Shown here: one piece after another, positions 1 through 63,330 of the stretch
Numbering within the stretch: the stretch's first letter is position 1
How the letters are laid out: each line of letters begins with the position of its first letter
Assembly: GCF_003202655.1 (NCBI RefSeq)
Contig: NZ_QGLR01000010.1
Location: 164,582 to 228,581, forward strand
Direction of reading: 5' to 3'
Length of the DNA: 64,000 nt
DNA from: Gilliamella apicola
Lineage (GTDB): Bacteria; Pseudomonadota; Gammaproteobacteria; Enterobacterales; Orbaceae
Position numbers and translations under genes: made by a program
Notes under the pieces: model-generated
The model's input: only the letters and a program-made list of their open reading frames with translations
The model's database searches: none
Told to the model about the DNA's origin: nothing

Positions 1-213
1 AAAATTAAGCATTTATATAATACTTTTTAGTATCAATGATATCTTTAAGTTTAAGACATTTTTCATCGGTGATTGACACTATAACCAATTAGAAATAATA
101 AATATTCTTTAAATCAAAAAAATAAGATTTAGTAAAAAAATCAGCAATAATTGAAAACTAGATATTCTAAAAATCTAAAAAAGACATAACATATCCGTAA
201 TTATTGAACAATA

Positions 214-23455: not shown

Positions 23456-23472
23456 ATAAGAGGTGTTTTAAA

Positions 23473-23560
23473 TGGTGCCCGGGGCGAGACTTGAACTCGC
23501 ACGGCCAAAAAGGCCGAGGGATTTTAAATCCCTTGTGTCTACCGATTTCACCACCCGGGC
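23473..23560 (-). tRNA. tRNA-Leu (anticodon UAA)
   Basis: The reverse complement reads GCCCGGGTGGTGAAATCGGTAGACACAAGGGATTTAAAATCCC...CACCA. It has a long variable arm and a UAA anticodon, resembling E. coli leuZ. Confidence 0.95.
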
Positions 23561-38532: not shown

Positions 38533-38548
38533 AATAAATCTCCATGCG

Positions 38549-39535: not shown

Positions 39536-39556
39536 CGATTAACCTCATAAATTTAA

Positions 39557-40210: not shown

Positions 40211-40211
40211 A

Positions 40212-40712: not shown

Positions 40713-40723
40713 AGTAATTTCCT

Positions 40724-42151
40724 TTAATTTTTTGTTTTTACTTGGATGTTTTGCATATGTGGATGAGATTTAGGCATACCATTACCTTGTTGCATGGCTT
40801 GTCTAGCTTGGGCCATCTTCTGTTGTAATTCGATATGTTCTGGATTATTAAGTTGCAATAACAATTGCTGCAATGCTTGAACTATATTACTCGACCAAAA
40901 ACGTCCTGATAAAGTTAGGCGTAAACAACGATCTTCATTTTGCAGCAAACCGACTTCATGCCATTGCTTGATAAGTGGGTCAAAGAGTTCAGCTTGATTG
41001 GTTAGTTGCGTTAAATCTACTCGCCCTTTTTCTATACCAGCTTGTAATTTATGCAACCAGTCACCCACTAAAGGTTTACCGGTTAACATCATCAACGGTT
41101 TTTTACCTTGGTCTAATAAAGCATAATATTGACTCAAATCTCGATGGATCATAAAAGATTGTCCGTCTAGCTTTCCACCTGCACATGAACCGAATGCAAA
41201 AAAGTGAGAGCCTTGTTTTATCAGAAAATTATATAAATTTCGTTCGCGACTGGTTTTTGCCCAATGAGCATTAGTTAAATGGGTCCAACCTTGTTTAGCT
41301 AAATATTCAGCACCTTGATGGTAAAAATTGCACTTATCAGTAACCGATGGGATCGCAATTCGATTATTTTCCACCCCTTTAGCTAATGGTGTTGTCGGCA
41401 AGAGATTTAAAGAATAAAGATCAACCCCGTCAAGTGGCAATTGATCAGCAATTTCTAAATCTCTTTGCCATGTAGCCGGTGTCTGGTTAGGTAAGCCAAA
41501 CATCAGGTCACAAACTAATGCAACACTATCACGCGCAGCAATACGTTCAAAACCTTGAATAATCTCTTTTTCTGATGATTGGCGTCCTAATCGTTGTCTA
41601 ATTGCGGTATTGAAGGTTTGAATACCTATCGAAAAACGATTTGCACCAGCTTCAATATAACTATCAATTTTATCTTCATCAAAATCAGAAATTCGCCCTT
41701 CGACTGTAATTTCACAATCTGGCGCTAATGGCGCATGCTGTTTAAAATAACTTATTACTCGCGCTAATTGTCCTGCCGCTAACGCAGAAGGTGTACCTCC
41801 ACCAAAATAAATAGCGTGAATTGGCGCCGACTGCATAGCTTTATTATTGATTTCGAGGGATATTTCTTGTAATAAATAATCAATATAAGTTTTGGTATCA
41901 AACTTTTTTAATGGGTTTTGATAAAATCCACAAAACTGACAATGAATATCACAAAAAGGGATATGAATGTAGATCAGTCGTTTTTTTCCAGATAAATCTG
42001 AATTTTGCAAGATACTCCATTGCGGCTCTAATTCTTGTGGTGATACTGGTAGGCTTGCTTGTAATGGCATCATTGCCCAACGATCTTTAAAAGGTAAAAC
42101 TGAATTTGAAGCGTAAAACGCACTTACATCAAATGATTTCATAACATCCAT
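40724..42151 (-). CDS. chuW: Radical SAM heme-degrading enzyme ChuW/HutW (HemN-like)
   Basis: Radical SAM CxxxCxxC (IPFCDIHCQFCGF). HemN-like length of 475 aa. Sits in a heme-uptake locus. Confidence 0.8.
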   Translation of the reverse strand: MDVMKSFDVSAFYASNSVLPFKDRWAMMPLQASLPVSPQELEPQWSILQNSDLSGKKRLIYIHIPFCDIHCQFCGFYQNPLKKFDTKTYIDYLLQEISLEINNKAMQSAPIHAIYFGGGTPSALAAGQLARVISYFKQHAPLAPDCEITVEGRISDFDEDKIDSYIEAGANRFSIGIQTFNTAIRQRLGRQSSEKEIIQGFERIAARDSVALVCDLMFGLPNQTPATWQRDLEIADQLPLDGVDLYSLNLLPTTPLAKGVENNRIAIPSVTDKCNFYHQGAEYLAKQGWTHLTNAHWAKTSRERNLYNFLIKQGSHFFAFGSCAGGKLDGQSFMIHRDLSQYYALLDQGKKPLMMLTGKPLVGDWLHKLQAGIEKGRVDLTQLTNQAELFDPLIKQWHEVGLLQNEDRCLRLTLSGRFWSSNIVQALQQLLLQLNNPEHIELQQKMAQARQAMQQGNGMPKSHPHMQNIQVKTKN

Positions 42152-42174
42152 TCATAAAAATAATCTCGGTGAAT

Positions 42175-42200
42175 TAAATAATAATTATTATCATTTATCA
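42175..42200. promoter_or_regulatory. Putative Fur box in the divergent chuW / hmuT promoter region
   Basis: AAATAATAATTATTATCATTTATC matches about 13 of 19 positions of the GATAATGATAATCATTATC Fur consensus. It lies between divergently transcribed heme genes. Confidence 0.45.
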
Positions 42201-42421
42201 ATATTTTTTTAATTTTTTTGCTGTTTATTTATCCTGAACTAAGTATTTATTTAATAACTGTTCAATATCCATCCTAGATTTGGGTGTTTTTTGAAAATTT
42301 TATTCAATCCCTACCCTACTTTGTCGTGGTTGATATTGATAATTGTTTTCATTATAGTGTTTTGTCTGATTTAAATTTGAGGTCTATAACTCAAGTGATA
42401 AATAAAAATTTCATAAACAAA

Positions 42422-43249
42422 ATGTGGTTATTTTTGTTGCTCTTTAGCCTAAATAGCTTAATCAATTTCAGCTCAGCAAATGAAAGAATTGTTGTTGCAG
42501 GTAGTACTTTGACAGAAATCGTTTTTGCCCTAGGTGCTGGAGAAGATATCGTTGGGGTGGATAATAGCAGTCGATATCCAAAACAAGTTACCCAATTACC
42601 ACAAATTGGTAATGTAAAATTGTTAAATATTGAATCAGTTTTATCCCTCACGCCCTCCTTAGTTATTAGTTTTGATGATGCGGAAATCGCTAACGTACTG
42701 AAACAAATTTCCCAAGCAAAAATCGAAATTTTACCCCTGAAACGTGAACCAAGTACAGTCGAATCGCTGTATGAAAATATCAGTAAAATTGCCGCTAAAT
42801 TAGATAGAGCAAAGGAAGGACAAAAACTGATTAAGCGAATCAAAAATGATCTTTCGCTAATTCAAAACAGAACTGCCACTCGTCGGCAAAAAACTAAAGT
42901 TTTATGCCTCATGAATATGGAGAGAAACATTTTCATAGTAGGAAAAAATACCGCTATCGATGCATTAATTACCATCGCTGGTGGTGAGAATTTGGCAACA
43001 CATAATAGTGTTAGAACTTATACTAGTGAATCACTAACTGCTATGAATCCCGAAGTTATTATTTTAACTAACCATTCGATCGAAGAGTTAGGTGGCTTTG
43101 ACAAAATTAATACCATTGCTGGTATTACCGAAACAGATGCATATAAAAACCATGGCATTGTTATTATCGATGATAGCTATTTATTTACAATCGGACCGAG
43201 AGTTGTTGAGGAAGTATTTAAACTGTTTAACGGCTTTTACCCTGAGTAA
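42422..43249 (+). CDS. hmuT: Heme ABC transporter periplasmic substrate-binding protein (copy 1)
   Basis: Signal peptide MWLFLLLFSLNSLINFSSA. The start was moved from the tracked 42284 to 42422. Paralog of 45000..45848, sharing ERIVVAGSTLTEIVFALGAG. Confidence 0.8.
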   Translation: MWLFLLLFSLNSLINFSSANERIVVAGSTLTEIVFALGAGEDIVGVDNSSRYPKQVTQLPQIGNVKLLNIESVLSLTPSLVISFDDAEIANVLKQISQAKIEILPLKREPSTVESLYENISKIAAKLDRAKEGQKLIKRIKNDLSLIQNRTATRRQKTKVLCLMNMERNIFIVGKNTAIDALITIAGGENLATHNSVRTYTSESLTAMNPEVIILTNHSIEELGGFDKINTIAGITETDAYKNHGIVIIDDSYLFTIGPRVVEEVFKLFNGFYPE

Positions 43250-43357
43250 AACCTCATTAAGTAATTTTTCTATTTTATTAATATTTTTATCAATTGAAGC
43301 AAGAGATGAGTATTTTTTTAATAAATTATGTTGGAAAGGACTAACATGATAAATGTT

Positions 43358-44632
43358 AACTGTTTACAAAAACTAGCTCGTTAATAAAAGGCTTATCATT
43401 AGCACTACCCGCTCTCTACTGACCAAACTAAGGGAAAAAAATAAGAATGAAAAAAGGTTGATACCTTACTAGTATTAGCTCGGGAAACCAACAAAAAACT
43501 GGGAACAACGACTGAAATTTCCGAGCAAGATATTCGTCGTGATGGCGGTGATAATTTTGCTAGCATTATGCGTTACCAACCGCTCATTTTCGCGTCATGA
43601 AACATTTCTGGCTCGGATGGCGGCAAAAGCAGTTGGAACCATGGTAGCCTTAGTTGTTGGTGAGGCCAATCTTAAAAAGGAAATCTGTGATAATTTTGAA
43701 ACAGGTTTGATCTGAAATAGTTTTGAAAGAACTGCCAATTGCTGGCATCACCCTTCCATCTTCAGCTTTTACAATAGATATAAAAATTTCATTGCTTATA
43801 CCCGTTATAAAAACGACTTTTGGGCTAGGAGTAATCGCATGGTTTATCTAGCTGAAAACCGAGATAAAGTTTATATTTATGGCTCAGAATTAAGCAGGAA
43901 ATTCAATATCAGCAAGTGGATTGAACCGCCTAACGGCTTATGGAAATAGGTTTAAAGAACTGCCAATTACTGGCGTCACCCTTTCATCTTCAGCTTTTTA
44001 CAATAGATATAAAATTTCATTGCTTATACCCGTTATAAAAACAACTTTTGGGCTAGGAGTAATCGCATGGTTTATCCAGCTGAAAACCAAGATAAAGTTT
44101 ATATTTATGGCTTAGAATTAAGCAGGAAATTCAATATCAGCAAGTGGATTGAATTGCCTAACGGCTTAAGCGTTAGGTTGGCAATTGGTTATAACCAAGA
44201 TAAATCACAAACAAGCTACTTAGCTGATAAATACCTTGAAATGGATTCCATAACACTCATGAAGTGGTTATTGGATTATAGCATGGAATGATGTAAATAA
44301 ATTTCATAGGGTAGCGCTTACTGCCACACTGCAAAAAAGAGAAAAGCCAAAGCGATATTTCGCAAAATTTATCGCAATCAAGGTAAACCACTCCTAATTT
44401 CGACGACGATTATTTGCCAATAGCCGACCATAGCACCGTGGATATAACCGTTAATATCAATATCAGCAAAAATATGAAATTAAGTGGCGGAATCTATAAT
44501 TTTACCGTTCTAAAATATTGGGATTATCTCAGTCGTAATAAATTGTATCTTACTGCCGTCCATAACTATCTATATGTGTTTACCTCGTCAGGTAGAACTT
44601 TTCAGTTAGGTTTGAAGATTGATTATTAATTG
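43358..44632 (+). pseudogene. Decayed TonB-dependent heme receptor gene (hmuR/chuA-like remnant)
   Basis: Fragments in several frames are colinear with the N-terminus (EISEQDIRRDGG..FASIMRYQPL), the middle (VTLSSSAFYN.YK; KVYIYG.ELS..FNISKWIE..NGLS.R.AIGYNQ.KS) and the C-terminus (KLSGGIYNFT..KYWDYLS.NKLY; GRTFQLGLKIDY) of the intact receptor at 45943..48243. The start region has a stop after 12 codons. An internal segment of about 229 bp is tandemly duplicated at 43726..43954 and 43955..44183. Confidence 0.85.
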
Positions 44633-44999
44633 AAAACACCAACAATAACATCTGCAACTTTTGGAGGTGTTTGTTTAAAGTTTATTTTTCGAGTTAAAAA
44701 AGGATTTAAGATTAGTTATAAATAGCCATTTTTTAATAGATTAATCTCCAATGTTAACCATAAAGCTAATTATTGAGATATAAATTGCGACTATTTTTAT
44801 AAAATAACTGTATATTATTTTGCCAAAATATTGATTATAAATTTATTATTTATTTGAAAAAAAGTTTTGTTAGCGTCTTATATTCATCAAGATTGCATCA
44901 AATTATTATCAAATAATCCTATATTTTAGGTTGATAATGGTTCTCATTTTCACTATATTACCCAATCTAAATGGAAAACCATGGTAGGTAAATTAGCTC

Positions 45000-45848
45000 A
45001 TGAAGAAGTTTGTAAAAAAGATTAGCCTATTTTTGCTAATTTTTAGTATCAATAGTCTTATCAACCTTAGTTCAGCAAACCAACGAATTGTTATTGCGGG
45101 TGGATCTTTAACTGAAATTGTCTTTGCATTAGGCGCTGGTGATGAGGTTGTCGGCGTTGATAAAACCAGTAGTTACCCTGAAAAAGTTAAGCAATTGCCA
45201 CAGATCGGCTATTGGAAGTTATTAAATATTGAAGGCGTATTATCACTTAAACCAACCCTATTTATAACTTTAAATGATGTAGAGCCTGATAATGTTATCG
45301 AAAAAGTATCTGAATCTAAAGTAGATGTATTAGCCTTACAACGTGTGCCAGGTACTATTGAACTGTTATATGAAAATATTGGTAAAATTGCCTCTAAATT
45401 GAACAAACAAAAAGAAGGTGAATTATTAATCAACAGAATTAAAACCAATCTTGCCGATATTCAAACTAAAATCGCAACTCACCCGCAAAAAACGAAAGTC
45501 CTATCACTAATGAGTATGAGTGGCACCAATTCGGTAGCCGGCAAAAACACCACCATTGATGCATTAATTGCTATTGCCGGCGGTGAGAATCTAGCAAAAC
45601 ATAATAGTTTCAAAAGCTATACTGCTGAATCAATCATTGCTATTAACCCAGAAGTTATCATCCTAAATAAATATTCGATTGATCAACTTGGTGGATTAGA
45701 CAAAATTGCTACTATTCCGGGGATAACTGAAACAGCTGCATTTAAAAATAATCGTATCACTATTATTGATGATAGTTACTTATTTGGAATTGGTCCACGA
45801 GTTGATGAAGCAGCAAAATTGTTATTCCAAAGCTTTTACCCTGAATAA
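45000..45848 (+). CDS. hmuT: Heme ABC transporter periplasmic substrate-binding protein (copy 2)
   Basis: Signal peptide MKKFVKKISLFLLIFSINSLINLSSA. About 60% identical by eye to copy 1. Confidence 0.85.
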   Translation: MKKFVKKISLFLLIFSINSLINLSSANQRIVIAGGSLTEIVFALGAGDEVVGVDKTSSYPEKVKQLPQIGYWKLLNIEGVLSLKPTLFITLNDVEPDNVIEKVSESKVDVLALQRVPGTIELLYENIGKIASKLNKQKEGELLINRIKTNLADIQTKIATHPQKTKVLSLMSMSGTNSVAGKNTTIDALIAIAGGENLAKHNSFKSYTAESIIAINPEVIILNKYSIDQLGGLDKIATIPGITETAAFKNNRITIIDDSYLFGIGPRVDEAAKLLFQSFYPE

Positions 45849-45942
45849 TGTAGTCCAATAATTTTAATAATATTTTTTATTAATTGAAGCAATAAATGCA
45901 TACATTTGTTATTAAGCATATTAAGTATGAAAGGATATAAAG

Positions 45943-48243
45943 GTGAATTTTAAAAAATTAAAAAAGACAAGTTCATTAGCCATAGGCTTAACATTAGCGT
46001 TACCCGCTCTCGCTACTGATAAGCATAATGATGAAAAAGATATTGACACTATTACAGTAACCGCTCATGAAGCCACCAAAAAACCGGGAATGAATACCGA
46101 AATTTCCGAGCAAGATATTCGCCGTGATGGTGGGACTAATTTTGGTAGCATTATGCGTTATCAACCATTAATTTCGGCACCGGGTAATATTTCTGGCTCA
46201 GGTAGTGGCAAAAGTAGTTGGGACCGTAGTGGCTTTACTGGCTACAATATTCGTGGTTTAGATGCCAACCGAGTATCTATCGACATTGATGGTATGCCTT
46301 TACCTATCGCTCAAGGTCGTGTTAACTCGGTTGGTCGTGCTGGATTTGGATCTTATGGAATTGGTCGCGATTATATTGATACTTATATGTACAATAAAGT
46401 GGATATCGAATCTGGTGCAACTTCAGTAAGTAATGCCAATAATGCTTTAGGTGGTTCGGTTTCCTTCCAAACTAAAACGGCAAGCTATTACCTCTATCCA
46501 GGTAAAACCACCTACTTTGGTTTCCAAAACAACTACGATAGCTCAGACCGTAGTTATCACCAAGGTATAACGATGGCGGCGGGTGATGATTATCTAAATG
46601 GGATTGTGGTGTTAAGTCGCCGAGATGGACAACAAACACGTAATCATGGTGATTCTATTAATAGTTACCCAGAAAATTGGCACTCCAACTCGATTTTAGC
46701 TGGTTTTGGTTGGCAAATGACAGAAGAACATTTAATCAATACTACTGTCGATTACAATAGTAAAACCAAAAATTCTCACTATGATTCATGGGATAGATAC
46801 GGTAAAAAAATCGAATCATATGATCATCAAAGAAGCAAAAACAATCGTTTTAATTTGGCATTCAAAGATCAATGGAAACCGACTAATATCAGTTGGATAG
46901 ATAGCTTAACAACTCAATTAAACTATCAACGTACCAATGTATTTGACGATACTGATCTTCGTCATACTACCAGAGGCAATTTTAATACCCAAACTAACTA
47001 CAATACTAAAGCTTATAACTTTATTACTACCTTAGTAAAAAATTATGAAAACCAAAGATTTAGTGCTGGTTTAAATGGTAAATGGAGTGAAGATGAATCG
47101 CCATTCTTCTCATCAGCTAAGTCACCACATGCCATAGTATTTCCTGATGGTGACTATAGTAAACCACAAGCCGATAGCCGTAGTTATCAGCTAGGCGGAT
47201 TTTTTGAAGATCGTATAAGCTTTAATTTTAATGACAGCAATAATTTTTATTTAGTTCCCGGTGTTAGAGCAGTTTATCAAAATACTAAACCTCGTAACCT
47301 CGAAAATATGTCATTAACCAAACTAAGTAGCAGTCAATTAGGAAAACAGTATAAAGGTAATAGCGATTTTAAAGTGTTACCTTCAATGGCATTTATGTAT
47401 GATATCAACCCTGACTTCACTGCTTATTTACAATACAAACGTGGAGCACAGATGCCTAATCAGAACCAACTATATGGCTCTTACTTAGCACACAGCAACA
47501 TGTATGTCTTAGTTGGCGATTCGAATCTAAAAACTGAAACAAGTGATAATTTTGAATTAGGTTTAAAAGGCCACCCGGTTTCTGGTGTGACCCTCTCATC
47601 TTCAGCGTTTTACAACAAATATAAAAACTTTATTGCCTATACCCGCTATAGGAAAAATTTTGTTGGAATTGGTAATCGTTTAGTTTATCAATCTGAAAAC
47701 CGCGACAAAGCCTATATTTATGGTGCTGAGTTAAGCAGTGAATTCAATATCGGTAAATGGGTTGAATCAGCTAACGGCTTAAGCGCAAGATTTGCAATTG
47801 GTTATAACCAAGGTAAATCTAAGTCAAGCTATTTAGGTGATAAATATGTGGAAATGGATTCGATCGCGCCGATGAAAACTACTGTAGGTTTAGCATGGGA
47901 TGATCCAAATAGAGTTTATGGAGTGGCAGTTACTGCTACATTCCAAAAAGGCAAAAAAGCTGAAGCGACATCTCGTGAGACTTATAATAACGAAGGTACA
48001 CCAATTTCACACTCTAATGACGATTATTTTAGAATTGCGGGGCATGGTATAGTGGATTTAACAAGTTATATTCACATCACCAAGAACGTGAAATTAAATG
48101 GTGGGATCTACAACCTTACCGATCAGAAATATTGGGATTACTTAAGTAATAATAAATTGTATAGCACATCAGATCATAAATATCTAGATATGTTTACTGC
48201 GCCTGGCAGAACATTCCAAGTAGGTTTAGATATTGATTTCTAA
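45943..48243 (+). CDS. TonB-dependent outer-membrane heme/hemoglobin receptor
   Basis: GTG start with an AAGGA RBS. Signal peptide ...ALPALA. TonB box-like DTITVTA. Plug domain and 22-strand barrel length (766 aa). C-terminal terminal-Phe motif (...VGLDIDF). Confidence 0.88.
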   Translation: MNFKKLKKTSSLAIGLTLALPALATDKHNDEKDIDTITVTAHEATKKPGMNTEISEQDIRRDGGTNFGSIMRYQPLISAPGNISGSGSGKSSWDRSGFTGYNIRGLDANRVSIDIDGMPLPIAQGRVNSVGRAGFGSYGIGRDYIDTYMYNKVDIESGATSVSNANNALGGSVSFQTKTASYYLYPGKTTYFGFQNNYDSSDRSYHQGITMAAGDDYLNGIVVLSRRDGQQTRNHGDSINSYPENWHSNSILAGFGWQMTEEHLINTTVDYNSKTKNSHYDSWDRYGKKIESYDHQRSKNNRFNLAFKDQWKPTNISWIDSLTTQLNYQRTNVFDDTDLRHTTRGNFNTQTNYNTKAYNFITTLVKNYENQRFSAGLNGKWSEDESPFFSSAKSPHAIVFPDGDYSKPQADSRSYQLGGFFEDRISFNFNDSNNFYLVPGVRAVYQNTKPRNLENMSLTKLSSSQLGKQYKGNSDFKVLPSMAFMYDINPDFTAYLQYKRGAQMPNQNQLYGSYLAHSNMYVLVGDSNLKTETSDNFELGLKGHPVSGVTLSSSAFYNKYKNFIAYTRYRKNFVGIGNRLVYQSENRDKAYIYGAELSSEFNIGKWVESANGLSARFAIGYNQGKSKSSYLGDKYVEMDSIAPMKTTVGLAWDDPNRVYGVAVTATFQKGKKAEATSRETYNNEGTPISHSNDDYFRIAGHGIVDLTSYIHITKNVKLNGGIYNLTDQKYWDYLSNNKLYSTSDHKYLDMFTAPGRTFQVGLDIDF

Positions 48244-48298: not shown

Positions 48299-48463
48299 GT
48301 TATTCATACCTACTTCTGAACGCCTTTCCGATATTTAAATTATTGTTAAACATTAAGTTAAGTTATTGTTAAAATAATCCCATAAAATATTACATGTAAT
48401 ATTTACATGTAAGAAGAATGTGTTAATATAAGTCGTATAAAAACTTAAAAACACTAAATTTTT

Positions 48464-52811: not shown

Positions 52812-52838
52812 TTAGGTAGGATTAAATGCCTACCTAAA
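52812..52838 (+). promoter_or_regulatory. Stem-loop between the flotillin gene and the giant AAA+ gene. It may be a partial terminator or attenuator.
   Basis: TTAGGTAGG-attaaatgc-CCTACCTAA, a 9-bp perfect stem with no strong T-run. Confidence 0.4.
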
Positions 52839-52874
52839 CGTTAAGTATTTGAGTATCATTTCAACGAGTAAAAC

Positions 52875-55800
52875 ATGTCAGAAATCCAAGACCAGCAACA
52901 AACATCAATTGATAAAGCCGTCGCGGAAGGCGGAGCTTATGAAATTCTTCGTAAACGTTTAACCTCTTTAGGACAAGAACTTAATCAAAAGACGGAAGCC
53001 CTTAATCAACAAAGGCTATCTGAGTTTGGTAAAAGTGACATGTCCATCATTAGTCGTATTCGAATTAGAACTGAAAATAATTGTGTCGCACGGGATATTG
53101 TTCGTTTTGGTGACTGGCTATTATTTGGTTATAACGTCTATTTAGGATTAAAAAAAGGAACCAAAATAGAGGATGTATTTTCCCTTTATCAATTAGTAGA
53201 ACGTGATGGCTCTTATGAGGCTGATCCAGTTGATTTGTCTAATACATTCTTAAATATAGATCGATTTATCCAAGATTTTAATGAGCTGTATACTTATTAT
53301 AAAAATGCTCAACTACTCCAGCTTGTTGAACGTGATGGAAAACTACTCGCTAGTTTTCAAATTGGTGAGCGAATCAGTGATATTCGAGTTTTTAGATGGT
53401 CCATATCAAGTGACAAAAAGACCATTGAGTATATCGATAATCGGGGTGAACGAGACATCGCATTACCACCCGCATATGATTTTGAATGGATCGAAACAAC
53501 CCGTGAAAATATTGTTAATGGTCGATTTCCACATGTTAATGTTCTTGATACGGTATTTGTTGAAACCATCGGTGGCGACTTAACCATAAAATGTGAAAAT
53601 AACACCAATGATGGTTTAGGTATTTATCGAGAGGAAGTTGTTGATCAGAATCAATCAATTAATGACGCGAAAATAGAATATGCTAAAGTGGGATCATTAA
53701 TCTTATTAAAAGTCCTACCTTACCGAGAAGAAAATTGGCGTTATCTTGTATATAACACCTTAACTCAACAAGTCCATCGTATAGACTTTATTGGACAGGC
53801 ATGTATTCAACTTCCTGAAGATCATGGGATTATATTTCCTGGTGGATATTACTTACAAAATGGTGATTATAAAACTTTTGACCATTCGATGTCAGGCATG
53901 CGTTTTCGACGTATTCGCCGTTCACCAAATGGTGAGGATGTGTTATATATTTTCTATGATCCAACTAACGGTCGATTAGCATTATTTAATTATAATATGA
54001 TCGAACGAAAACTGGATAATCCGATATTAGGACATGGATATGCGGTTTTTGAAGATGGTCGAATGGTGGTCTTTGAAGGTGAAAATGATGAACCAACTCG
54101 GGTACATCCAATGCAGATTTGGCAAACACCTTTTTATAGTGATGAATTTGCCGCACAACAACCAACTAATAACAGCTTCCTTGGCAAAATAGGTAATGCC
54201 GAACTGGTTCGCGGCATTTCAGATCTTTACTTTATTTCGCGTGAAATCGATAACCAAACCGTCTCTTCACAGCTATATAGCAAACTTAGTGAGGATACCA
54301 AGAGACTTTTCGATAACTATTTTTGGCTCAATGACGATAAACATTTAGCCTTCTCCCCTATTCTGCGTAATATTACCCAAACGAGTGAACTGGTTATTGA
54401 TGAATATGAAAAAGTCGAAAGTATTCGTCGTCAATCAGAAAGCGCGATGCGTGAGGCTCTCTCTAATCAGCAAGATTTATTAAGCAAACTTTATCCGGAT
54501 AGTTGGCACGAAACCCAAGAATTTGTTGATGCATTAAATGCCATAAAAATGCAACTTGGCAGTTTAGTCACGTTAAGAACTTATCGTTACATCGATTTAA
54601 ATCAAATCGATAAAATGGAAAATGAACTAAAAACCAGACAGAGTGAGGTTTCATTAGCCACTGCTGAATTTTTAGGAAGTGATAAAGCGCTTGAACCATT
54701 CAATGTTAAAATTGACAATATCGAGCAGCAGCTTAGCAAAGCAGATACGGTAGCGAAATTACTCAATTCGGTAGAAATTACAGAAACCATGTCTGCTGAT
54801 TTGGATATGCTTTCACAATTAATCGCAACCCTAAAATTTGATGATGTTACTTTACAAACCAGAATCATCGAATCCATTGCCGAAGTCTATGCAAAACTCA
54901 ACCAAACAAAGGCTAAGATCCAACAAAAACGAAAAAATTTAGCCAATGTTGAAATGGTTGCACAATTTGGCGCCCAATTTAAATTATTTGGTCAAAGCAT
55001 TGCCAATGCCCTAAGTATGGCAACCACGCCAGAAAAATGTGATGATGAGCTATCTCGTCTTTTACTACAACTAGAAGAGCTTGAGAACCAATTTAGTGAA
55101 AGTGAGGAATTTCTTAATGATATTCTAACTAAACGTGAAGAAATCCTAGAATCATTCGAAACACATAAACAAGCGTTATTAGAGGATAGAACCAGACGGA
55201 CGGATGCCCTACTAACCGCTGCACAACGTATTTTAGACAGCATCCCAAGAAGAACCGCTAAATTTGCCGATCAAAATGAACTTAACGCTTTCTTTGTTGC
55301 TGACCCATTGGCGCAAAAAATCCGTGAAATTGTCGAAAAATTAAGAGCACTTTTTGATAATGTTAAAGCCGATGATATTGAGTCCAAATTTAAAAGTGCC
55401 CAAGATCAAGCCATACGATCCTTACGAGATAAATCGGAAATATTTGAATCTGGTGGAAATGTCATTAAACTAGGTCCACGGCATAAATTTAGTGTTAATA
55501 CCCAAGAGCTTGATTTAACCATAGTGCCTAAAGATCAGCATCTGTTTATGCAATTAACTGGGACTGAGTTTCAAGAAAAAATAATCAATGAGCAATTAGA
55601 AGCCTATAAGCCATTTTGGACGATTTCATTAGAATCAGAATCACCATCGGTATACCGTGCAGAGTATCTCGCCTATTCGATCATTACTGCTGCTTTACAA
55701 AAAGAGAGTGGATTAACTTATGTCGATTTAGCTAACCAGTTAAATCAACCTGAAACGCTTAATAAAACAGTGCGTGATTTTGCCACAATGCGCTATCGTG

Positions 55801-57809
55801 AAGGTTATGAAAAAGGGATTCATGACCACGATGCGGCTAAAATTCTAACAAAATTGATTCCTCTTGGCGAAGCGGCTGGTTTACTGCGCTATAACCCGTT
55901 AGCACGAAGCTTAGCCATTATTTATTGGCACTATAACCAAAAAAATGATATTGCCAAATTCTGGCCAGAACGTGCGAAAACTTGTATGGATATCCGAAAG
56001 TTATTCAGTCATGATGAAGGAATAATTAATCTTCAAGCGGAAATCTCTCAACAATTGACAGAATTTTTCAATGATAATCCAATTGCTCATCAGCCATTCC
56101 ATATTAAACAAGCGTCTGAATATCTTTGCTATGTATTAGCTCAAACGCCACAACAATTTATTTTCAGTAAATATAGCAAACAATTATTTGATGGATTAAA
56201 AAATCAACTTGAACAATCGCATATGTGGGGTGATTTCAATCAATCACAAAATAATCTTAATGAAAGATTAGCAGAACGTTGGAATCTAATCGAAAGTTGG
56301 CTTAAAGGGCTTTGCACATTACCTCTGTATAGCAAACTAAACAATTATATTGCTGAAGCTGTAATTTTAAATATCTTGGATAAAGCAGATAGCCTAACAA
56401 TCAGTGAGGTTGAACTTGAAGTATCGATTACCGATCTACTCGGTGAACACCCAACCATTAATCAAGGCGTGTTAAATATTAATTTAGATGACTTCTTTAG
56501 CCGTATGCGTTATCAATATAAAGTGGTTATCCCACAATTCCAACACTACCAAAGTTTACGTCAAGAAATATTAGTAAACCAACGTGAAGCACTCCATCTT
56601 GATGAATTCAAGGCTAAACCACTTAGCTCATTTGTTCGTAATAAACTGATAAATCAAGTTTATTTACCAATCATTGGCGACAATCTAGCCAAACAAATGG
56701 GTACCGTCGGAGAAACGCGTCGTAGTGATTTAATGGGATTATTACTCCTCATTTCACCACCTGGCTATGGTAAAACCACATTAATGGAATATGTTGCTAA
56801 TCGTTTAGGTTTAATTTTTATGAAAATTAACGGGCCGGCATTAGGTCACAGTGTATTGTCGTTTGATCCTGAACAAGCACCAAATGCAACCGCTCGTCAG
56901 GAGTTAGAAAAACTCAATTTAGCACTGGAAATGAGCAATAACGTTATGCTCTACATTGATGATATTCAACATACCAATCCAGAATTTTTACAGAAGTTTA
57001 TCTCATTATGTGATGGTTCTCGCCGTATCGAAGGGGTTTGGAAAGGTAAAACCAAAACCTATGATCTGAGAGGTAAAAAATTCTGTGTAATAATGGCTGG
57101 TAACCCTTACACAGAATCTGGCGAAGTATTCAAAATACCTGACATGCTAGCCAACCGAGCTGATATCTATAATTTAGGTGAAGTACTCGGCGGTATGGAT
57201 GAAGTATTTGCAACCAGTTATATTGAAAATTGCTTAACCTCTAATGCAACATTATCACCATTAGCCTTACGCGATTTAAATGATCTCTATCAGTTTATTG
57301 ACCATGCACAAGGCAAACCACTTAATACCAATGAGATGAGTTATAGCTATAGCCAAGCAGAAATTAGTGAAATTGTCGCCGTAATACGTCATTTATTAAA
57401 AATTCGTGAAGTGGTATTTAAAGTTAATCAGCAATATATTGCAAGCGCGGCTCAATCAGACAAATATCGAACTGAACCTGCGTTTAAACTGCAAGGAAGT
57501 TATCGAAATATGAATAAACTTGCTGAAAAAGTGTCATCCGTCATGAATGATGCAGAGCTCAATCAAATTATTGATGATCACTACCTCGGTGAGGCACAAC
57601 TACTCACCAATGGCGCAGAAGAGAACTTACTGAAACTGGCTGAAATTCGTGGAGTAATGACGGAAGATGAGACTAATCGCTGGCAACAAATAAAAAGTGA
57701 CTTTATGCGCAATAAAAGTTTAGGTGGCGATGATGCGAATACCGGCTCACAAATTGTCACCCAACTTGCCGATTTAGTGCAAAGTGTGCAAGCGTTGAAA
57801 TTACAGTAG
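52875..57809 (+). CDS. Very large (1644 aa) multidomain protein with a C-terminal AAA+ ATPase domain. Function unknown.
   Basis: One Walker A (LLLISPPGYGKTTL, about aa 1290), Walker B (VMLYIDDIQ), a sensor/arginine region (KFCVIMAGNPYTE...IPDMLANRADIYNL) and a central coiled-coil-rich region. No TM segments. The N-terminal about 450 aa are not recognisable. It begins 105 nt after the flotillin gene. Confidence 0.8.
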   Translation: MSEIQDQQQTSIDKAVAEGGAYEILRKRLTSLGQELNQKTEALNQQRLSEFGKSDMSIISRIRIRTENNCVARDIVRFGDWLLFGYNVYLGLKKGTKIEDVFSLYQLVERDGSYEADPVDLSNTFLNIDRFIQDFNELYTYYKNAQLLQLVERDGKLLASFQIGERISDIRVFRWSISSDKKTIEYIDNRGERDIALPPAYDFEWIETTRENIVNGRFPHVNVLDTVFVETIGGDLTIKCENNTNDGLGIYREEVVDQNQSINDAKIEYAKVGSLILLKVLPYREENWRYLVYNTLTQQVHRIDFIGQACIQLPEDHGIIFPGGYYLQNGDYKTFDHSMSGMRFRRIRRSPNGEDVLYIFYDPTNGRLALFNYNMIERKLDNPILGHGYAVFEDGRMVVFEGENDEPTRVHPMQIWQTPFYSDEFAAQQPTNNSFLGKIGNAELVRGISDLYFISREIDNQTVSSQLYSKLSEDTKRLFDNYFWLNDDKHLAFSPILRNITQTSELVIDEYEKVESIRRQSESAMREALSNQQDLLSKLYPDSWHETQEFVDALNAIKMQLGSLVTLRTYRYIDLNQIDKMENELKTRQSEVSLATAEFLGSDKALEPFNVKIDNIEQQLSKADTVAKLLNSVEITETMSADLDMLSQLIATLKFDDVTLQTRIIESIAEVYAKLNQTKAKIQQKRKNLANVEMVAQFGAQFKLFGQSIANALSMATTPEKCDDELSRLLLQLEELENQFSESEEFLNDILTKREEILESFETHKQALLEDRTRRTDALLTAAQRILDSIPRRTAKFADQNELNAFFVADPLAQKIREIVEKLRALFDNVKADDIESKFKSAQDQAIRSLRDKSEIFESGGNVIKLGPRHKFSVNTQELDLTIVPKDQHLFMQLTGTEFQEKIINEQLEAYKPFWTISLESESPSVYRAEYLAYSIITAALQKESGLTYVDLANQLNQPETLNKTVRDFATMRYREGYEKGIHDHDAAKILTKLIPLGEAAGLLRYNPLARSLAIIYWHYNQKNDIAKFWPERAKTCMDIRKLFSHDEGIINLQAEISQQLTEFFNDNPIAHQPFHIKQASEYLCYVLAQTPQQFIFSKYSKQLFDGLKNQLEQSHMWGDFNQSQNNLNERLAERWNLIESWLKGLCTLPLYSKLNNYIAEAVILNILDKADSLTISEVELEVSITDLLGEHPTINQGVLNINLDDFFSRMRYQYKVVIPQFQHYQSLRQEILVNQREALHLDEFKAKPLSSFVRNKLINQVYLPIIGDNLAKQMGTVGETRRSDLMGLLLLISPPGYGKTTLMEYVANRLGLIFMKINGPALGHSVLSFDPEQAPNATARQELEKLNLALEMSNNVMLYIDDIQHTNPEFLQKFISLCDGSRRIEGVWKGKTKTYDLRGKKFCVIMAGNPYTESGEVFKIPDMLANRADIYNLGEVLGGMDEVFATSYIENCLTSNATLSPLALRDLNDLYQFIDHAQGKPLNTNEMSYSYSQAEISEIVAVIRHLLKIREVVFKVNQQYIASAAQSDKYRTEPAFKLQGSYRNMNKLAEKVSSVMNDAELNQIIDDHYLGEAQLLTNGAEENLLKLAEIRGVMTEDETNRWQQIKSDFMRNKSLGGDDANTGSQIVTQLADLVQSVQALKLQ

Positions 57810-58136
57810 AGGGCGATTAATCAGTGTCTTTATATAGGTTATAAATATAATTTTAGGCTTGATTTTTAATGTTTTTACTCACTATGTTGAGGAAATTGCT
57901 AGAAGATAAGCCTCAAAACCTTTATTAAACCTCGACAGTTGATAAGAGTTGAGCACAAACACTACAGTTACAATATTGTGTAACAATTAAAAACAGTTAC
58001 ACAATTGTAAATTTAAGCCTTTGTGCTTACTACTATCATCCTAAATCGGTAGTCTATTTATCTAAATTTAATCAAAAATAGAACTGGTTTATTGAATAAA
58101 AAGTTAACATTTGAAATATTGGTTTGGAGAAAATAA

Positions 58137-58514
58137 TTAATGATTTTTAATCTTGTAGATATTAACTGTTCCTCGTTTTCTCATGATTATTTCTGCTACT
58201 AATACCATCTTTTGCAAAAGCGCCATATCAAATTCCTTTCCATTTTCAAAATAGATTCTAGCTAGACCTGATATGTAATTTTTTATCGTATCATCATTTT
58301 TTAAATTATTAATTTGAAGAGTATAATTGTTAACAAAATCATCAAATATATGCTTTTCATCATAATTTATTTTATCAATTTCTTTTTGAGACAGATTCTT
58401 TAATACATCTAATCCATATCCATCAGTGGCTAATGGCTGTTCATTCAAATATTTTCTTTGAAATTCTGCAAATCTCAGCAAAATTTCATTAATACTTTCT
58501 ATTAAATTATCCAT
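58137..58514 (-). CDS. Hypothetical small protein in the AT-rich island
   Basis: 125-aa ORF. A paralog-like remnant of its N-terminus (DNLVRVISNECL versus DNLIESINEIL) lies at about 58900..59040 on the same strand. Confidence 0.4.
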   Translation of the reverse strand: MDNLIESINEILLRFAEFQRKYLNEQPLATDGYGLDVLKNLSQKEIDKINYDEKHIFDDFVNNYTLQINNLKNDDTIKNYISGLARIYFENGKEFDMALLQKMVLVAEIIMRKRGTVNIYKIKNH

Positions 58515-59516
58515 AAATTTTGAAATTATCTTGATGCTATTAGATTACCTATATCTTTGCACTAATAATTAGTGCAATTGATATGATAAAAGTTTTCGAA
58601 CTACAGCAACTTTTAATAATATTCCTGTCTTATTCTTTGTTAACCGAGCTACTTTGCAACGGTTATTATAGTTTTTTACTACTTTTATTACCGTTATTCA
58701 ATGCTTAGTATTGGCAGATCTCGTACCAATTAGATCTATTCTTCTACCAAAGCATCCTAATTAAAATCTATCATTTTGAATTTTCGATAATAAAATAAAT
58801 ATTATTTTTATTACATAATTTTTCTAACAATCCTACTCACTCATTCCTGAGAATGAAATGGGTTCTTAGCAAAGCTGGATATTTAACGAAAAACTTCAAT
58901 TTTGCATTTCATCATCGCTATCAAGATATTCTTTAATGATACTTTTTATATTATTGAAATACGTGTAGTTGCTAAGACATTCATTAGATATTACTCTGAC
59001 TAAATTATCTAAATCCTTAAATTTTAGTACTTCTCTATCATTATAAATTTTTTATTTAGCGTTTATATAATGTTACTTTTTCTATTTATCAGTACTGATA
59101 TAACTTATATTTTATCAGTATTGATTATCATCATAGACATATACTTTTATAACCTTTACATCAAAAGTTGAAATCTTTTTATGATTATTATTAATATCAT
59201 CAATTATTGAATTCTCAATATTGTTGCAATTCCACCTAGTTAGTGCCTATTAAACGCTACCATTGTAATTTTAATTGCATGTCATTAAATTGAAACTCTA
59301 TTTTCCTAACTATACAGTCTATCCTAGTTTAGATTTAAATATCAAAGTATTGCTTTATATGCAAAAACACATTGTTTTGCCAAAGATAACCATAAATGTT
59401 ATTACTATAAATCTTATTACTACAAATATTTACACGTTTTTATTCCTGGCGATAATCTTGAACTTATCACTAAGCTGAACACCTAAATAGTTTAGTCAAT
59501 TTAATCAAGTTAGTTT

Positions 59517-59984
59517 TTATTTTATTATTTCAATTATTCCCAAAAATAAAATTACGTATCTACCAGAATTCAGTTCTGAAACCGCAAAACAAAATAATAA
59601 CCACCTGTTTTTTATACTTTTAAAAGTAAAACACGGCGAGAAATCCATATTTTTGACATAATAACATTTGAATTCATCAGGATTGTTATATTTAGGCGTT
59701 TTAGATTTCAATTTTAATTGGTCTACTATTTGATTATAAAACAATTTTTTATCTTCTATATTGATCAAATTTCTTCTTATCAAAATAGATTGGCTAAATA
59801 ATGAAAATGTTGAAAGGTAATTATTGGCAAAATCGGAAAAAATAATTTCAATTTGCTCATTATCTATATCATAGATAAAAGTCTGTTTATACAATAACTC
59901 TAATGTCCCATCAAATAATGTTTCATATTTGATATATTTTTTATTCTGTATTCTTTTTATCTGCATTGTATACGATTTAAACAC
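59517..59984 (-). CDS. Hypothetical small protein in the AT-rich island
   Basis: 155-aa ORF with no motifs recognised. GC content is very low. Confidence 0.35.
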   Translation of the reverse strand: MFKSYTMQIKRIQNKKYIKYETLFDGTLELLYKQTFIYDIDNEQIEIIFSDFANNYLSTFSLFSQSILIRRNLINIEDKKLFYNQIVDQLKLKSKTPKYNNPDEFKCYYVKNMDFSPCFTFKSIKNRWLLFCFAVSELNSGRYVILFLGIIEIIK

Positions 59985-60064
59985 CCATCTTCACTATGTA
60001 AATATCCGATTGTTAGTACATAAATCAACGAGAAAATTATGCCATTTTGTCTGCAATATAAGCC

Positions 60065-60559
60065 CTAATAAGGGATACCTTTAATACTCTCTAGCCATTT
60101 TTGATAGTATTGATGTAATTCCATAACAGTTATAATTTTATCTGAACTCTCTTCAGGCGAAAAAATATTAATTTTTATAGGATTTTTTGATAATCTTTCA
60201 CCTAAATCTAATTTGACAGTATAAAGTGAATAATTAGCTCTAGGTATCATAAAATATCCATATGAACAGCCTTTTATAAGCATTTTTATGCTATTTTTTT
60301 CAACTTTAGTACACAAACCATAAAAAGCATTACTCAGCCTATCTGAACTATTCACAAAAATATTACCAAGTTCATCCATATATTTCATAAAATAAATTGT
60401 ATAAGTACCTGTAAATTTATATTTTTTATTAAAAATCAGATCATATATTTCGGGATCATCAGTTTTTTGTGTCCATAAACTGATTGTGGCTTTTATGCTT
60501 TGATTTTTGGAATCTAAACAAGCTAAATTAAAGCTTTGACAATTTTCTTTATTGTTCAT
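60065..60559 (-). CDS. Hypothetical small protein in the AT-rich island
   Basis: 164-aa ORF with no motifs recognised. Confidence 0.35.
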   Translation of the reverse strand: MNNKENCQSFNLACLDSKNQSIKATISLWTQKTDDPEIYDLIFNKKYKFTGTYTIYFMKYMDELGNIFVNSSDRLSNAFYGLCTKVEKNSIKMLIKGCSYGYFMIPRANYSLYTVKLDLGERLSKNPIKINIFSPEESSDKIITVMELHQYYQKWLESIKGIPY

Positions 60560-61335
60560 TATTTTTATATTACTCGTTGTTTTTTCGATTCATAACTACA
60601 AATTTTGTTATCAGGATAAGAACTATAACCCTTTAAAATTTTATTTAGATCAAATCGTTTACTATCATCAATTTCAATTTTTTAAAGGAAATCTTTTCTT
60701 GCATAATAATTGGTTATAAATTCCAATTCATATTCTAAACAATAACGATATATTAAGCACACAGAATCGAAAATACTTTATCGGCAATTTTAACTCATAC
60801 TGCAATGTCGACACTTCTTCATACAACAAAGTTGAAGGATAACGTTTTGTTAAATGCCGTCGCATCAAAAAACTAGTGAGGAATGCAGCGGATTGTTGTA
60901 GTACCAATATGCATAAGCAGAAAAACCTTGTCTGGATTCATTGTTTTAGTTCATTGGTTTAGTTCATTGGTATCGGTGAATACCTTATTTTTGACAAATT
61001 AAGTTGTAATTGTCTTAAATGTCACTTTAGTAACAACATTATCGTAAGGACATGCTTTGTGGCTGAATGAGCAAGTGATAGCCAATAACTCAAATCAACT
61101 ATCAATTAATTATCAAACCCTTTTCCTCGGCCAAAATGACATAGTACGATTGAGGATAATGGTGCTTTAATTGGGCTTAGCTGGCTCAACAAGTTCGGCT
61201 ATTTTATGTTGCCCGACACTGAATCCGACTATTTTTCATGTCGAGAGTTTTAGTAATACACAATGATAATGATCTCATACTTATTTGTTAAATTTTTTTG
61301 TGTAATGCGTTACCTTGCTCGGCCGCTTTTGTATA

Positions 61336-61857: not shown

Positions 61858-63330
61858 TTATTCTGTTAGTTGCTCTAATTTATTACAAGCCTTTCCAAGA
61901 TGCCCTTCACAAGCTAGTTGGTAATACTTTTTCGCTAAAGATTTATCTTGCTCAATACCATCACCTTTATCATACATACGCGCTAAACGATATTGTGCTT
62001 CAGCATCACCTTGTTCTGCTACTTTTGTATACCAATAGGCAGCTTTAACTTTATCCTGCGCTGTGCCTTCACCTTCATAATAGATAATCGCTAAATTATA
62101 TTCAGCGTCAGCATTACCTTGCTCTGCCGATTTTGTATACCAATAAAGCGCCTTTTGCTTATTTTGCGCTGTACCATCACCGAAATAATACATATTCCCT
62201 AAATTTTTTTGTGCAATGGGGGAACCTTGCTCCGCCGCTTTTGTAAACCAATATAACGCCTTTTGCTTATCTTGCTCTATGCCATCACCCTTATAATACA
62301 TATTCCCTAAATTGTTTTGCGCCGCAAACTGGCCTTGCTCCGCGGCTTTTGTATACCAATAAAACGCCTTTTGTTTATCCTGCTCTATGCCGTTTCCTTC
62401 ATCGTAAATAAGCGCTAAGTTATATTGGGATTCAGCATCATCTTGTTCTGCTGCTTTTGTATACCAATATACCGCCTTTTGCTTATCTTGCTCGGTACCA
62501 TCACCATGACTATACATAAACGCTAAATTTTTTTGTGCTTTGGCGTAACCTTGCTCTGCCGATTTCGTATACCAATAAAACGCCTTTTGTTTATCTTGTT
62601 CTGTGTCATCACCTTCATCATACATATACGCTAAATTAAATTGGACTTCAGCATTGCCTTGTTCTGCTGCTTTTGTATACCAATATACTGCTTTTTGTTT
62701 ATCTTGTTCTATACCATCGCCTTTACTATATATAACCGCTAAATTATTTTGTGCGCTAAATTCACCTTGTTCTGCTGCTTTTGTATACCAATATACTGCC
62801 TTTTGTTTATCTTGCTCTATGCCTTCACCGTCACTATACATAAGCGCTAAATTATATTGGCCGTGAGTATTACCTTGTTCTGCTGCTTTTGTATACCAAT
62901 AAAACGCTTTTTGTTTATCTTGCTCGGTGCCTTCACCGTAATAATACTTATTCGCTAAGATGTTTTGAGCGATGGAGTTACCTTGTTCCGCTACTTTTGT
63001 ATACCAATATAATGCCTTTTGTTTATCTTGTTCCAAGCCATCACCTTTATCATAAATGACCGCTAAATTATATTGGGCGTCAGCATTGCCTTGTTCTGCT
63101 GCTTTTGTATACCAATATACCGCCTTTTGCTTATTTAGTTCGATGTCATCACCTTCATCATACATATATGCTAAAAAAAATTGGGCTTCAGCATTACCTT
63201 GCTCAGCTTCTTCTTTACAGGAAGTAAAAGCTTCTTCACTACTTCCCATAAGCCAATATATTTTACATTGATTTGCATAAACAATAGAAGAAAGTAAGAG
63301 TGATAATATGATTAATAATCCTTTTTTCAT
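61858..63330 (-). CDS. Secreted Sel1-like repeat (SLR/HcpA-like) protein with about 12 tandem Sel1 repeats
   Basis: Signal peptide MKKGLLIILSLLLSSIVYA. Reiterated 36-aa units (AEQGNAEAQYNLAxMYxxGxGxEQDKQKAVYWYTKA). C-terminal Cys-containing tail. Confidence 0.85.
   Translation of the reverse strand: MKKGLLIILSLLLSSIVYANQCKIYWLMGSSEEAFTSCKEEAEQGNAEAQFFLAYMYDEGDDIELNKQKAVYWYTKAAEQGNADAQYNLAVIYDKGDGLEQDKQKALYWYTKVAEQGNSIAQNILANKYYYGEGTEQDKQKAFYWYTKAAEQGNTHGQYNLALMYSDGEGIEQDKQKAVYWYTKAAEQGEFSAQNNLAVIYSKGDGIEQDKQKAVYWYTKAAEQGNAEVQFNLAYMYDEGDDTEQDKQKAFYWYTKSAEQGYAKAQKNLAFMYSHGDGTEQDKQKAVYWYTKAAEQDDAESQYNLALIYDEGNGIEQDKQKAFYWYTKAAEQGQFAAQNNLGNMYYKGDGIEQDKQKALYWFTKAAEQGSPIAQKNLGNMYYFGDGTAQNKQKALYWYTKSAEQGNADAEYNLAIIYYEGEGTAQDKVKAAYWYTKVAEQGDAEAQYRLARMYDKGDGIEQDKSLAKKYYQLACEGHLGKACNKLEQLTE

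Follow-up and report, generated by a model that had tools for sequence, protein, structure and literature searches.

A probable BacE orthologue, a 1644-residue AAA+ protein encoded behind PspA and flotillin genes in Gilliamella apicola

The bac-type operon and the architecture of its last product

The stretch analysed here, referred to as the window, comprises 64,000 nucleotides (nt) of the Gilliamella apicola genome (contig NZ_QGLR01000010.1, positions 164,582 to 228,581 of the forward strand). It contains five co-oriented genes, encoding a DUF2170 protein (BacA), a PspA protein (BacB), a YqiJ-like membrane protein (BacC), a flotillin (BacD) and, last in the row, a protein of 1644 amino acids (aa) with a C-terminal AAA+ module. 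We are confident that this protein is the Gilliamella orthologue of BacE of Pseudomonas aeruginosa (PA3728 / PA14_16190), which is likewise encoded in a bac-type operon, and we refer to it as BacE. The key clue to the protein is provided by the co-oriented PspA, YqiJ-like and flotillin genes upstream of it. The gaps between the five genes are 30, 97, 25 and 104 nt; these short distances, and the fact that no T-tract terminator is present, are the only signs of a single mRNA in the window. No open reading frame (ORF) for a PLD/HKD protein (BacF) occurs after position 57809 within the window, and the Gilliamella operon is a five-gene version without PLD. The features are collected in Table 1.

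The BacA-like protein matches the NCBIfam model 'biofilm formation regulator BacA' (E=7e-85) with 283.6 bits, slightly under the 300-bit cutoff. The BacC-like protein has three to four hydrophobic segments and a soluble C-terminal domain; it has no Pfam match, and its assignment to the YqiJ/YuaF type follows PMC11237479. The BacD-like protein has a transmembrane segment at aa 4-38 and matches Band_7 above the gathering score (E=1.3e-7) when aa 1-233 are scanned alone.

Table 1. Genes, domains and motifs of the bac-type operon in the window
Feature	Nucleotide positions	Amino acids	Strand	Basis or remarks
Tandem palindromes TTACATGTAA-TAT-TTACATGTAA overlapping sigma70-like -35/-10	48389..48411		.
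bacA-like gene, DUF2170 / YjfI type, CesT/Tir-like chaperone fold, 213 aa	48464..49105		+	Pfam DUF2170 E=4e-45
bacB-like gene, PspA/IM30 (bacterial ESCRT-III), YjfJ type, 230 aa	49136..49828		+	Pfam PspA_IM30 E=2e-51
bacC-like gene, YqiJ/YuaF-type membrane protein, 216 aa	49926..50576		+	hydropathy; position-matched phmmer homologues, 69 loci
bacD-like gene, flotillin type, transmembrane anchor + SPFH/Band-7 + long coiled coil, 722 aa	50602..52770		+
Probable bacE orthologue, soluble DUF3686-DUF7902-AAA+ protein, 1644 aa	52875..57809		+	Pfam, homology, gene order
DUF3686 region, end of N-terminal helical hairpin + predicted beta-propeller	52977..54323	35-483	+	Pfam, AlphaFold
Long-helix / coiled-coil stalk	54324..55484	~484-870	+	includes DUF7902, nt 54684-54938
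Mainly helical middle domain, confidently predicted, without known relative	55512..56594	~880-1240	+
Motif G-[VI]-H-D-x-D-A, helix start in middle domain	55815..55835	981-987	+
AAA+ module	56622..57674	~1250-1600	+	Pfam, conservation profile, fold matches
Walker A SPPGYGKTT	56754..56780	1294-1302	+	S1294-P-P-G-Y-G-K-T1301 invariant 63/63
Walker B LYIDDIQ	56949..56969	1359-1365	+	D1362, D1363, Q1365, H1366 conserved 63/63
GNPYTESG...IPDMLANRADIYNL	57099..57176	1409-1434	+	G1409, N1410, P1411, R1428 conserved 63/63
QGSYRNM	57492..57512	1540-1546	+	Q1540, G1541, S1542, Y1543, R1544, M1546 conserved 63/63

The bacE-type gene is a single uninterrupted ORF from ATG to TAG. An ORF of 4.9 kb in DNA of 36% G+C cannot have arisen by chance, and the alignment of more than 5,500 clusters over 99-100% of its length indicates a genuine gene, not a fusion of two ORFs. 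A frameshift or fusion was rejected, as hundreds of homologues from many phyla are collinear with the protein over its full length; in addition, M1 is invariant in all members of our conservation sample, which consists of 63 divergent full-length family members with 31-61% identity to the window protein. A hydropathy scan of the 1644 aa found no hydrophobic segment that qualifies as a transmembrane helix. The description of the product as a soluble protein, made in a first-pass annotation of the sequence, is therefore correct.

The same annotation had taken the AAA+ module to be the only recognisable domain. Pfam identifies two others, DUF3686 (PF12458; aa 35-483, model positions 1-448 of 448, E=2.4e-203) and DUF7902 (PF25472; aa 604-688, model positions 1-85 of 85, E=4.2e-22), besides weak matches at aa 1290-1417 to AAA (E=1.5e-7) and AAA_5 (E=6e-7), both of which exceed their gathering scores. 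The annotation's suggestions of a beta-rich N-terminal region of about 450 aa and a coiled-coil-rich middle agree with the AlphaFold models. In the model of aa 1-740, made with 40 homologues (mean predicted local distance difference test score, pLDDT, of 77), a helical hairpin at aa 2-51 precedes about 27 beta-strands at aa 58-417, and long helices follow, which in the two models together account for some 400 aa after the N-terminal part. In the model of aa 700-1644 (mean pLDDT 75) the long helices continue to about aa 850 and lead through a low-confidence linker into a mainly helical domain (aa ~880-1240, pLDDT ~90), an alpha/beta AAA+ core predicted with moderate confidence (aa ~1287-1420) and a helical C-terminal region.

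In a Foldseek comparison with the PDB, the N-terminal model matched beta-propellers alone, all of them generic (WD40, Kelch, CyRPA, GH43 and prolyl-oligopeptidase) and at 7-12% identity. These matches confirm, at the level of the model, that the DUF3686 region is a beta-propeller, but give no functional lead. The fold matches of the AAA+ module are RuvB, NorQ/CbbQ, MCM and ClpB. Sequence and profile searches of all PDB chains gave no match beyond the Walker A strand in RuvB, p97 and Rix7 (E>=1e-3), indicating that the protein has no solved structural relative.

Distribution of the family and linkage to flotillin

The window protein shares a 90%-identity cluster with RefSeq WP_110433733.1, named 'DNA repair ATPase [Gilliamella apicola]', and Gilliamella entries with this name are 85-100% identical to it. 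Identity is 78-92% for homologues from other Orbaceae (Gilliamella, Orbus), 67-70% for those from Morganellaceae and Budviciaceae (Proteus, Providencia, Morganella, Xenorhabdus, Leminorella and Pragia) and 61-63% for those from Pseudomonas, Lysobacter and one deltaproteobacterium. Across the range of 61-100% identity, represented by Gilliamella, Proteus, Pseudomonas and Lysobacter proteins, coverage is 99-100%; the P. aeruginosa protein (P0107, 1746 aa) is 61% identical over its full length. At the level of 90%-identity clusters there are at least 5,563 full-length homologues, aligned over 99-100%. At least 564 relatives were confirmed in a scan that took a single genome for each GTDB species, and the matches listed include Beta- and Zetaproteobacteria, Myxococcota and Acidobacteriota as well as contigs labelled Actinomycetota and Clostridia. 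A HMMER search over 1.84 billion 50%-identity representatives gave 1,355 matches with E<=1e-3, 441 of them with E<=1e-30, and full-length members of ~1,590-1,930 aa persist down to ~26-30% identity. The wide spread and the persistence of full-length members at such low identity indicate that the family is old, large and architecturally stable, and that it extends beyond the Orbaceae. The family motifs SPPGYGKT, DDIQH, GNP, NR and QGSYR are all present in the window protein. The protein had been regarded as unusual and its possible confinement to Orbaceae had been raised; the latter is wrong, as homologues span many phyla, and the former is not supported, given how often the protein occurs in Gamma- and Betaproteobacteria, in Myxococcota and elsewhere. 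Two homologues are highly similar to the Gilliamella protein in spite of distant labels, one at 67% identity on a contig labelled Phytomonospora sp. (Actinomycetota; L027) and one at 51% on a contig labelled as a metagenome-assembled genome of Clostridia (L070). This could reflect horizontal transfer, or contamination or mis-binning.

The family is catalogued over its full length as DUF3686, DUF7902 and AAA, but it is not well characterised. NCBI and UniRef name its members 'DNA repair ATPase' and Pfam describes DUF3686 as 'ATPase involved in DNA repair', while NCBIfam is without a family model for the 1644-aa protein. A literature search on DUF3686 returned no papers, and searches on YqiK/AAA+/propeller and on flotillin/NfeD/AAA+ ATPase operons returned nothing relevant to the BacE family.

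In 81 loci (80 species loci and the P. aeruginosa locus, L001), every ORF was compared with the five window proteins and with the PLD protein of P. aeruginosa. All 81 loci contain BacE. In 71 of them the gene just before it on the same strand encodes a BacD-type flotillin, and in 69 a BacC-type membrane protein is encoded upstream of the flotillin. In the ten loci that lack a flotillin, the contig extends less than 0.8 kb upstream of bacE, and in the two further loci without BacC the contig ends inside the flotillin gene. The linkage to flotillin and YqiJ is therefore complete wherever it can be assessed. It extends to divergent family members: the gene immediately in front of those for P0231 and P0244, which share 31-32% identity with the window protein, again encodes a BacD-type flotillin (E~1e-53). 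The invariant core of the operon across bacteria is the YqiJ-like membrane protein, the flotillin and BacE. DUF2170 and PspA were found in 37-38 of the 81 loci; since PspA is present in about half of the loci and flotillin/YqiJ always, the constant partner of BacE is the flotillin/YqiJ pair and not PspA. This count bears out the earlier observation that operons of the flotillin-YqiJ-ATPase version occur more widely than those with PspA (PMC11237479). A PLD gene follows bacE in only 17 of the 81 loci and is not a defining component.

In four of the loci with DUF2170 and PspA, from Cellvibrionaceae and Marinobacter (L045, L067, L068 and L072), the DUF2170-PspA pair is divergently oriented from the YqiJ-flotillin-BacE triad, which suggests that the two modules are separable units. 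In the locus of one of the two divergent members named above (L083) a 214-aa membrane protein precedes the flotillin, and a PspA gene lies ~6 kb downstream.

In the P. aeruginosa locus the order of genes is DUF2170, PspA, a 213-aa protein, a 688-aa protein and P0107, after which come the genes for a PLDc_2 protein, YaeQ, RecJ and an M4 peptidase. Read against the PAO1 map, on which we take lasB to be PA3724 and recJ to be PA3725, this order identifies P0107 as PA3728. The P. aeruginosa and Gilliamella proteins have the DUF3686-DUF7902-AAA architecture in common and are both encoded after DUF2170, PspA, YqiJ-like and flotillin genes. They differ in length, the Gilliamella protein being ~100 aa shorter (1644 versus 1746 aa), and the P. 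aeruginosa operon continues with the PLD gene bacF, which the Gilliamella operon lacks.

Wallart et al. 2024 (PMC10948618) used reverse transcription PCR to show that PA14_16140-16200 form one operon, bacABCDEF, and further found that BacB to BacF, including PA14_16190 (BacE), are up 6-13-fold in a bacA mutant. The P. aeruginosa operon is repressed by BacA, directly or indirectly. Co-transcription and co-regulation are thereby established for P. aeruginosa, alongside the gene identity, domain layout, motif conservation and gene linkage established here. Other studies report that PA3728-PA3732 are up-regulated in all samples infected with either of two virulent phages (PMC12041424), that PA3731 is induced by hyperosmotic stress (PMC2587700) and that loss of rsmA has one of its strongest effects on PA14_16190 (PMC8855297). 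The operon type was described computationally by Ravi et al. 2024 (PMC11237479), with a 'Betapropeller+Coiled-coil+AAA-ATPase' beside YqiJ/YuaF and Band-7/flotillin. Compared with the CesT/Tir-PspA-YqiJ/YuaF-Band-7/flotillin operons of that study, the window holds a further instance, in the version without PLD, and no difference in kind.

The Gilliamella copy is therefore an instance of a published system and already known in kind: RefSeq already contains its protein cluster and Pfam the family, a computational description of the operon has been published and bacE has been named experimentally. What is added here is the quantification of flotillin/YqiJ as the invariant partner, evidence that the 'DNA repair' name is unfounded, a list of invariant residues of catalytic type, including the Walker B D-D and an H-D-x-D motif in a domain that is an orphan by fold, and the lack of a solved structural relative.

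Conserved residues and placement of the AAA+ module

Conservation across the family is highest in the AAA+ block at aa ~1241-1440 (mean column identity 0.7-0.8). The Walker motifs lie where the first-pass annotation had placed them (Table 1), as does ANRADIYNL at aa 1426-1434. Residues invariant in all 63 sequences include R1383 as well as P1422, M1424, L1425, N1427 and R1428. The Walker B motif of BacE has D-D instead of D-E and is followed by an invariant Q-H. By motif analogy, N1410 is a candidate sensor 1 and R1428 a candidate arginine finger, and R1544, in the lid domain, is a candidate sensor 2 by analogy with other AAA+ proteins. Walker A, the acidic pair of Walker B, N1410, R1428 and R1544 are kept in the 63 sequences down to ~31% identity. 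Judged by its sequence, BacE appears to have kept all nucleotide-binding and sensing residues, as in an active ATPase.

A second set of conserved residues lies in the middle domain and its neighbourhood, where D852, G867 and E922 are invariant and R928, R1011, E1161 and H1192 are at least 95% conserved. In the motif at the start of a helix of this domain (G-[VI]-H-D-x-D-A), G981, H983 and D986 are conserved in 63 of 63 sequences and D984 in 60. The H-D-x-D motif looks like a functional site, and it could be matched to no known fold or enzyme family.

Several AAA+ and related groups were considered for the placement of the module. The classical AAA clade (Vps4, Cdc48/p97, katanin and FtsH) has a Walker B of the form hhhhDE, which is absent from BacE, where the sequence is LYIDD and D1363 is Asp in 63 of 63 members. 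The second region of homology of this clade (RPGRFD-like, with paired arginines) is also absent, and the corresponding motif, IPDMLANRADIYNL, has the single invariant R1428. Sequence matches to p97 and Cdc48 in the PDB end after Walker A. Two features exclude BacE from the classical Vps4/Cdc48 clade, namely the Asp that all members have where Walker B would carry Glu and the ANRAD motif with its single arginine.

The succession of D-D-I-Q-H, a beta-hairpin, GNP, G and P-D-x-L-x-N-R in BacE resembles MoxR/dynein-type (AAA_5) ATPases. Pfam is undecided between AAA and AAA_5, as both exceed their thresholds in seven of seven divergent members (E 1e-5 to 1e-9; the scan of divergent members was run on nine alignment fragments). 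PF00004 scores 32-37 bits, above the gathering score, often with a partial match (model positions 1-37 to 1-110 of 131), and AAA_5 scores about equal. Compared with the MoxR family (NorQ, CbbQ and RavA; AAA_5/AAA_3 group), the likeness is weak (Foldseek E>=2.6e-3), the AAA_3 match is sub-threshold and BacE has 1,250 additional N-terminal residues. The VWA-domain partner of that family is absent from the BacE operon, no gene of which gave a VWA match, either in the window or in the P. aeruginosa locus. A sigma54 activator of the PspF type is not indicated either, with no match to Sigma54_activat (GAFTGA loop, C-terminal helix-turn-helix) in Pfam or NCBIfam. There is likewise no Pfam match of BacE to SMC_N, AAA_23, Rad50 or SbcC, and both Walker motifs lie within aa 1294-1365 in one C-terminal AAA+ fold, while SMC/Rad50 proteins have theirs split across the coiled coil.

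Possible function, regulation and surroundings of the operon

SPFH proteins assemble into large cages attached to the membrane, and PspA into polymers of the ESCRT-III type. FtsH-HflK/C, an AAA+ protease in an SPFH cage, is a precedent for an AAA+ machine combined with an SPFH scaffold at the bacterial inner membrane. To our knowledge, nothing is known to power the dynamics of bacterial flotillins. We tentatively propose that BacE could use ATP to remodel or recycle the flotillin scaffold, and PspA as well where it is present; we see this as a serious possibility that falls somewhat below an even chance. The proposal draws on the retained AAA+ residues, the flotillin/YqiJ linkage, the frequent presence of PspA, the stress induction and a 2025 review according to which bacteria appear to be without a Vps4-like ATPase for PspA (PMC7619361). 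The explanation as a whole, a BacE orthologue in a bac-type membrane-stress operon acting as an ATP-driven flotillin/PspA remodeller, is in our estimate only just short of an even chance. The first-pass annotation had likened the protein to giant chaperone or remodeller ATPases, and a function of this kind is still the most plausible reading, whereas its status as an orphan has been lost to a catalogued family that matches over the full length.

In such a scheme, the flotillin/YqiJ pair would form an SPFH scaffold at the inner membrane, on its cytoplasmic side, and this scaffold could recruit the ESCRT-III-like PspA. BacE would dock by means of its N-terminal beta-propeller and long helical stalk, serving as docking and lever elements, and its C-terminal AAA+ module, probably an oligomeric ring, would use ATP to assemble, remodel or recycle flotillin and/or PspA polymers. 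In function, though not by descent, it would thus correspond to Vps4 in its action on ESCRT-III, or to FtsH within the HflK/C cage. The physical docking, the oligomerisation, the substrate and the direction of remodelling are what we infer.

The likeness to Vps4/CdvC consists in an AAA+ ATPase that is genetically coupled to an ESCRT-III-superfamily protein, PspA in the case of BacE, with a role in membrane remodelling, and in a substrate-recruiting N-terminal region ahead of the ATPase, which we also ascribe to BacE. The differences are considerable. Homology of BacE is limited to the AAA+ fold, D-D replaces D-E, and there is a single ANRAD arginine and not an RPGRFD-type motif. BacE is four times larger, is without a demonstrable MIT domain, and has flotillin, not PspA, as its constant partner. 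In comparison with FtsH-HflK/C, BacE is without a transmembrane segment and without a protease domain, and its AAA+ module is related by fold alone. Because BacE falls outside the Vps4 clade by these features, remodelling is a claim about its working mode and not about family membership.

The BacE family comprises ATPases of ~185 kDa that are ~60% identical between distant Gammaproteobacteria, are always paired with flotillin and carry a database name that is probably wrong. A member would be an obvious candidate for the Vps4-like ATPase of PspA/ESCRT-III or for the power source of flotillin dynamics. A broader version, in which BacE is the missing energy source of both flotillin and PspA scaffolds, a propeller-docked Vps4 analogue acting in envelope stress to which the H-D-x-D site could add a second activity, is doubtful. 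Gilliamella lives as a symbiont in the gut of bees, where the operon may help the cells to tolerate envelope stress.

Other explanations are possible to varying degrees. BacE may be a nucleotide-dependent switch or scaffold of the STAND-like or MoxR-like kind, and not a processive remodeller, with oligomerisation on damaged membrane driven by ATP binding and the real catalysis residing in the H-D-x-D middle domain; we consider this unlikely. An anti-phage defence or abortive-infection module, with BacE as sensor or effector NTPase and the PLD protein BacF (absent here) as nuclease or phospholipase effector, is improbable. Large coiled-coil NTPases and PLD-family proteins are common in defence systems, the PLD gene follows bacE in some of the loci, and the P. 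aeruginosa genes are phage-induced, but such induction would also be expected of an envelope-stress (Psp-like) response. PADLOC-DB 2.0 gave only P-loop and coiled-coil noise with the operon proteins (E>=7e-4, 11.6-15.5 bits) and no model match beyond the P-loop (E~0.006). Defence islands do not typically show such strong conservation (61% identity from Orbaceae to Pseudomonas across 1,644 aa) or a fixed site between core genes like that in P. aeruginosa. The NCBI, UniRef and Pfam names, the RuvB matches that rank first for the P-loop region in both sequence and Foldseek searches, and the position of recJ three genes downstream in P. aeruginosa might point to a DNA repair ATPase of the SMC/Rad50/SbcC or RuvB kind that works on the chromosome. 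This reading can hardly be entertained, as the RuvB likeness is confined to ~35-45 residues around Walker A (E~1e-3), the SMC-type matches are absent and the Walker motifs lie together, no DNA-binding or nuclease domain was detected in BacE, its invariant neighbours are membrane proteins and no publication was found in support of the name, which probably arose by transfer on coiled-coil similarity.

Two elements of the operon may bear on its expression. Just upstream of the bacA-like gene, the 10-bp palindrome TTACATGTAA occurs in two copies separated by TAT. From its sequence, the pair may be an operator/promoter of the operon and possibly the operator of a repressor. For P. aeruginosa bacA a sigma54 promoter has been proposed, while Gilliamella has the sigma70-like site and tandem palindromes instead; a search for sigma54 -24/-12 sites found none near the operon, and the window-wide number, 24, compares with 25.9 expected by chance. 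In the 104-nt gap between the flotillin gene and bacE there is a hairpin, AGGTAGG-ATTAAATG-CCTACCT (~52825-52848), without a T-tract. Such a structure could influence how stable the mRNA is or how much of it is read through, and hence the ratio of BacD to BacE.

Directly downstream of the operon, at 57810-60600, G+C content falls to ~25% and there are three small ORFs on the minus strand (58137-58514, 59517-59984 and 60065-60559), the first of which has a sub-threshold match to DUF7004. This region may have been horizontally acquired; it sits where P. aeruginosa carries the PLD gene bacF. Further downstream, 61858-63330 (-) encodes a 490-aa secreted-looking protein that consists nearly entirely of Sel1-like repeats ('QDKQKAxYWYTKAAEQG'). 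On the other side of the operon are an ABC ATPase/permease pair with a radical-SAM-like gene (37759-42151, -), and two paralogous periplasmic-binding-protein-like genes (42284-43249 and 45000-45848, both +) on either side of a region that adjoins a gene for a 766-aa TonB-dependent-receptor-like protein (45943-48243, +). By eye, the genes at 37759-48243 look like a haem or iron uptake cluster, which would lie immediately upstream of the bac-like operon. Two adjacent tRNA genes at 23383-23560 (-) are the sole Rfam matches at the gathering threshold in the window.

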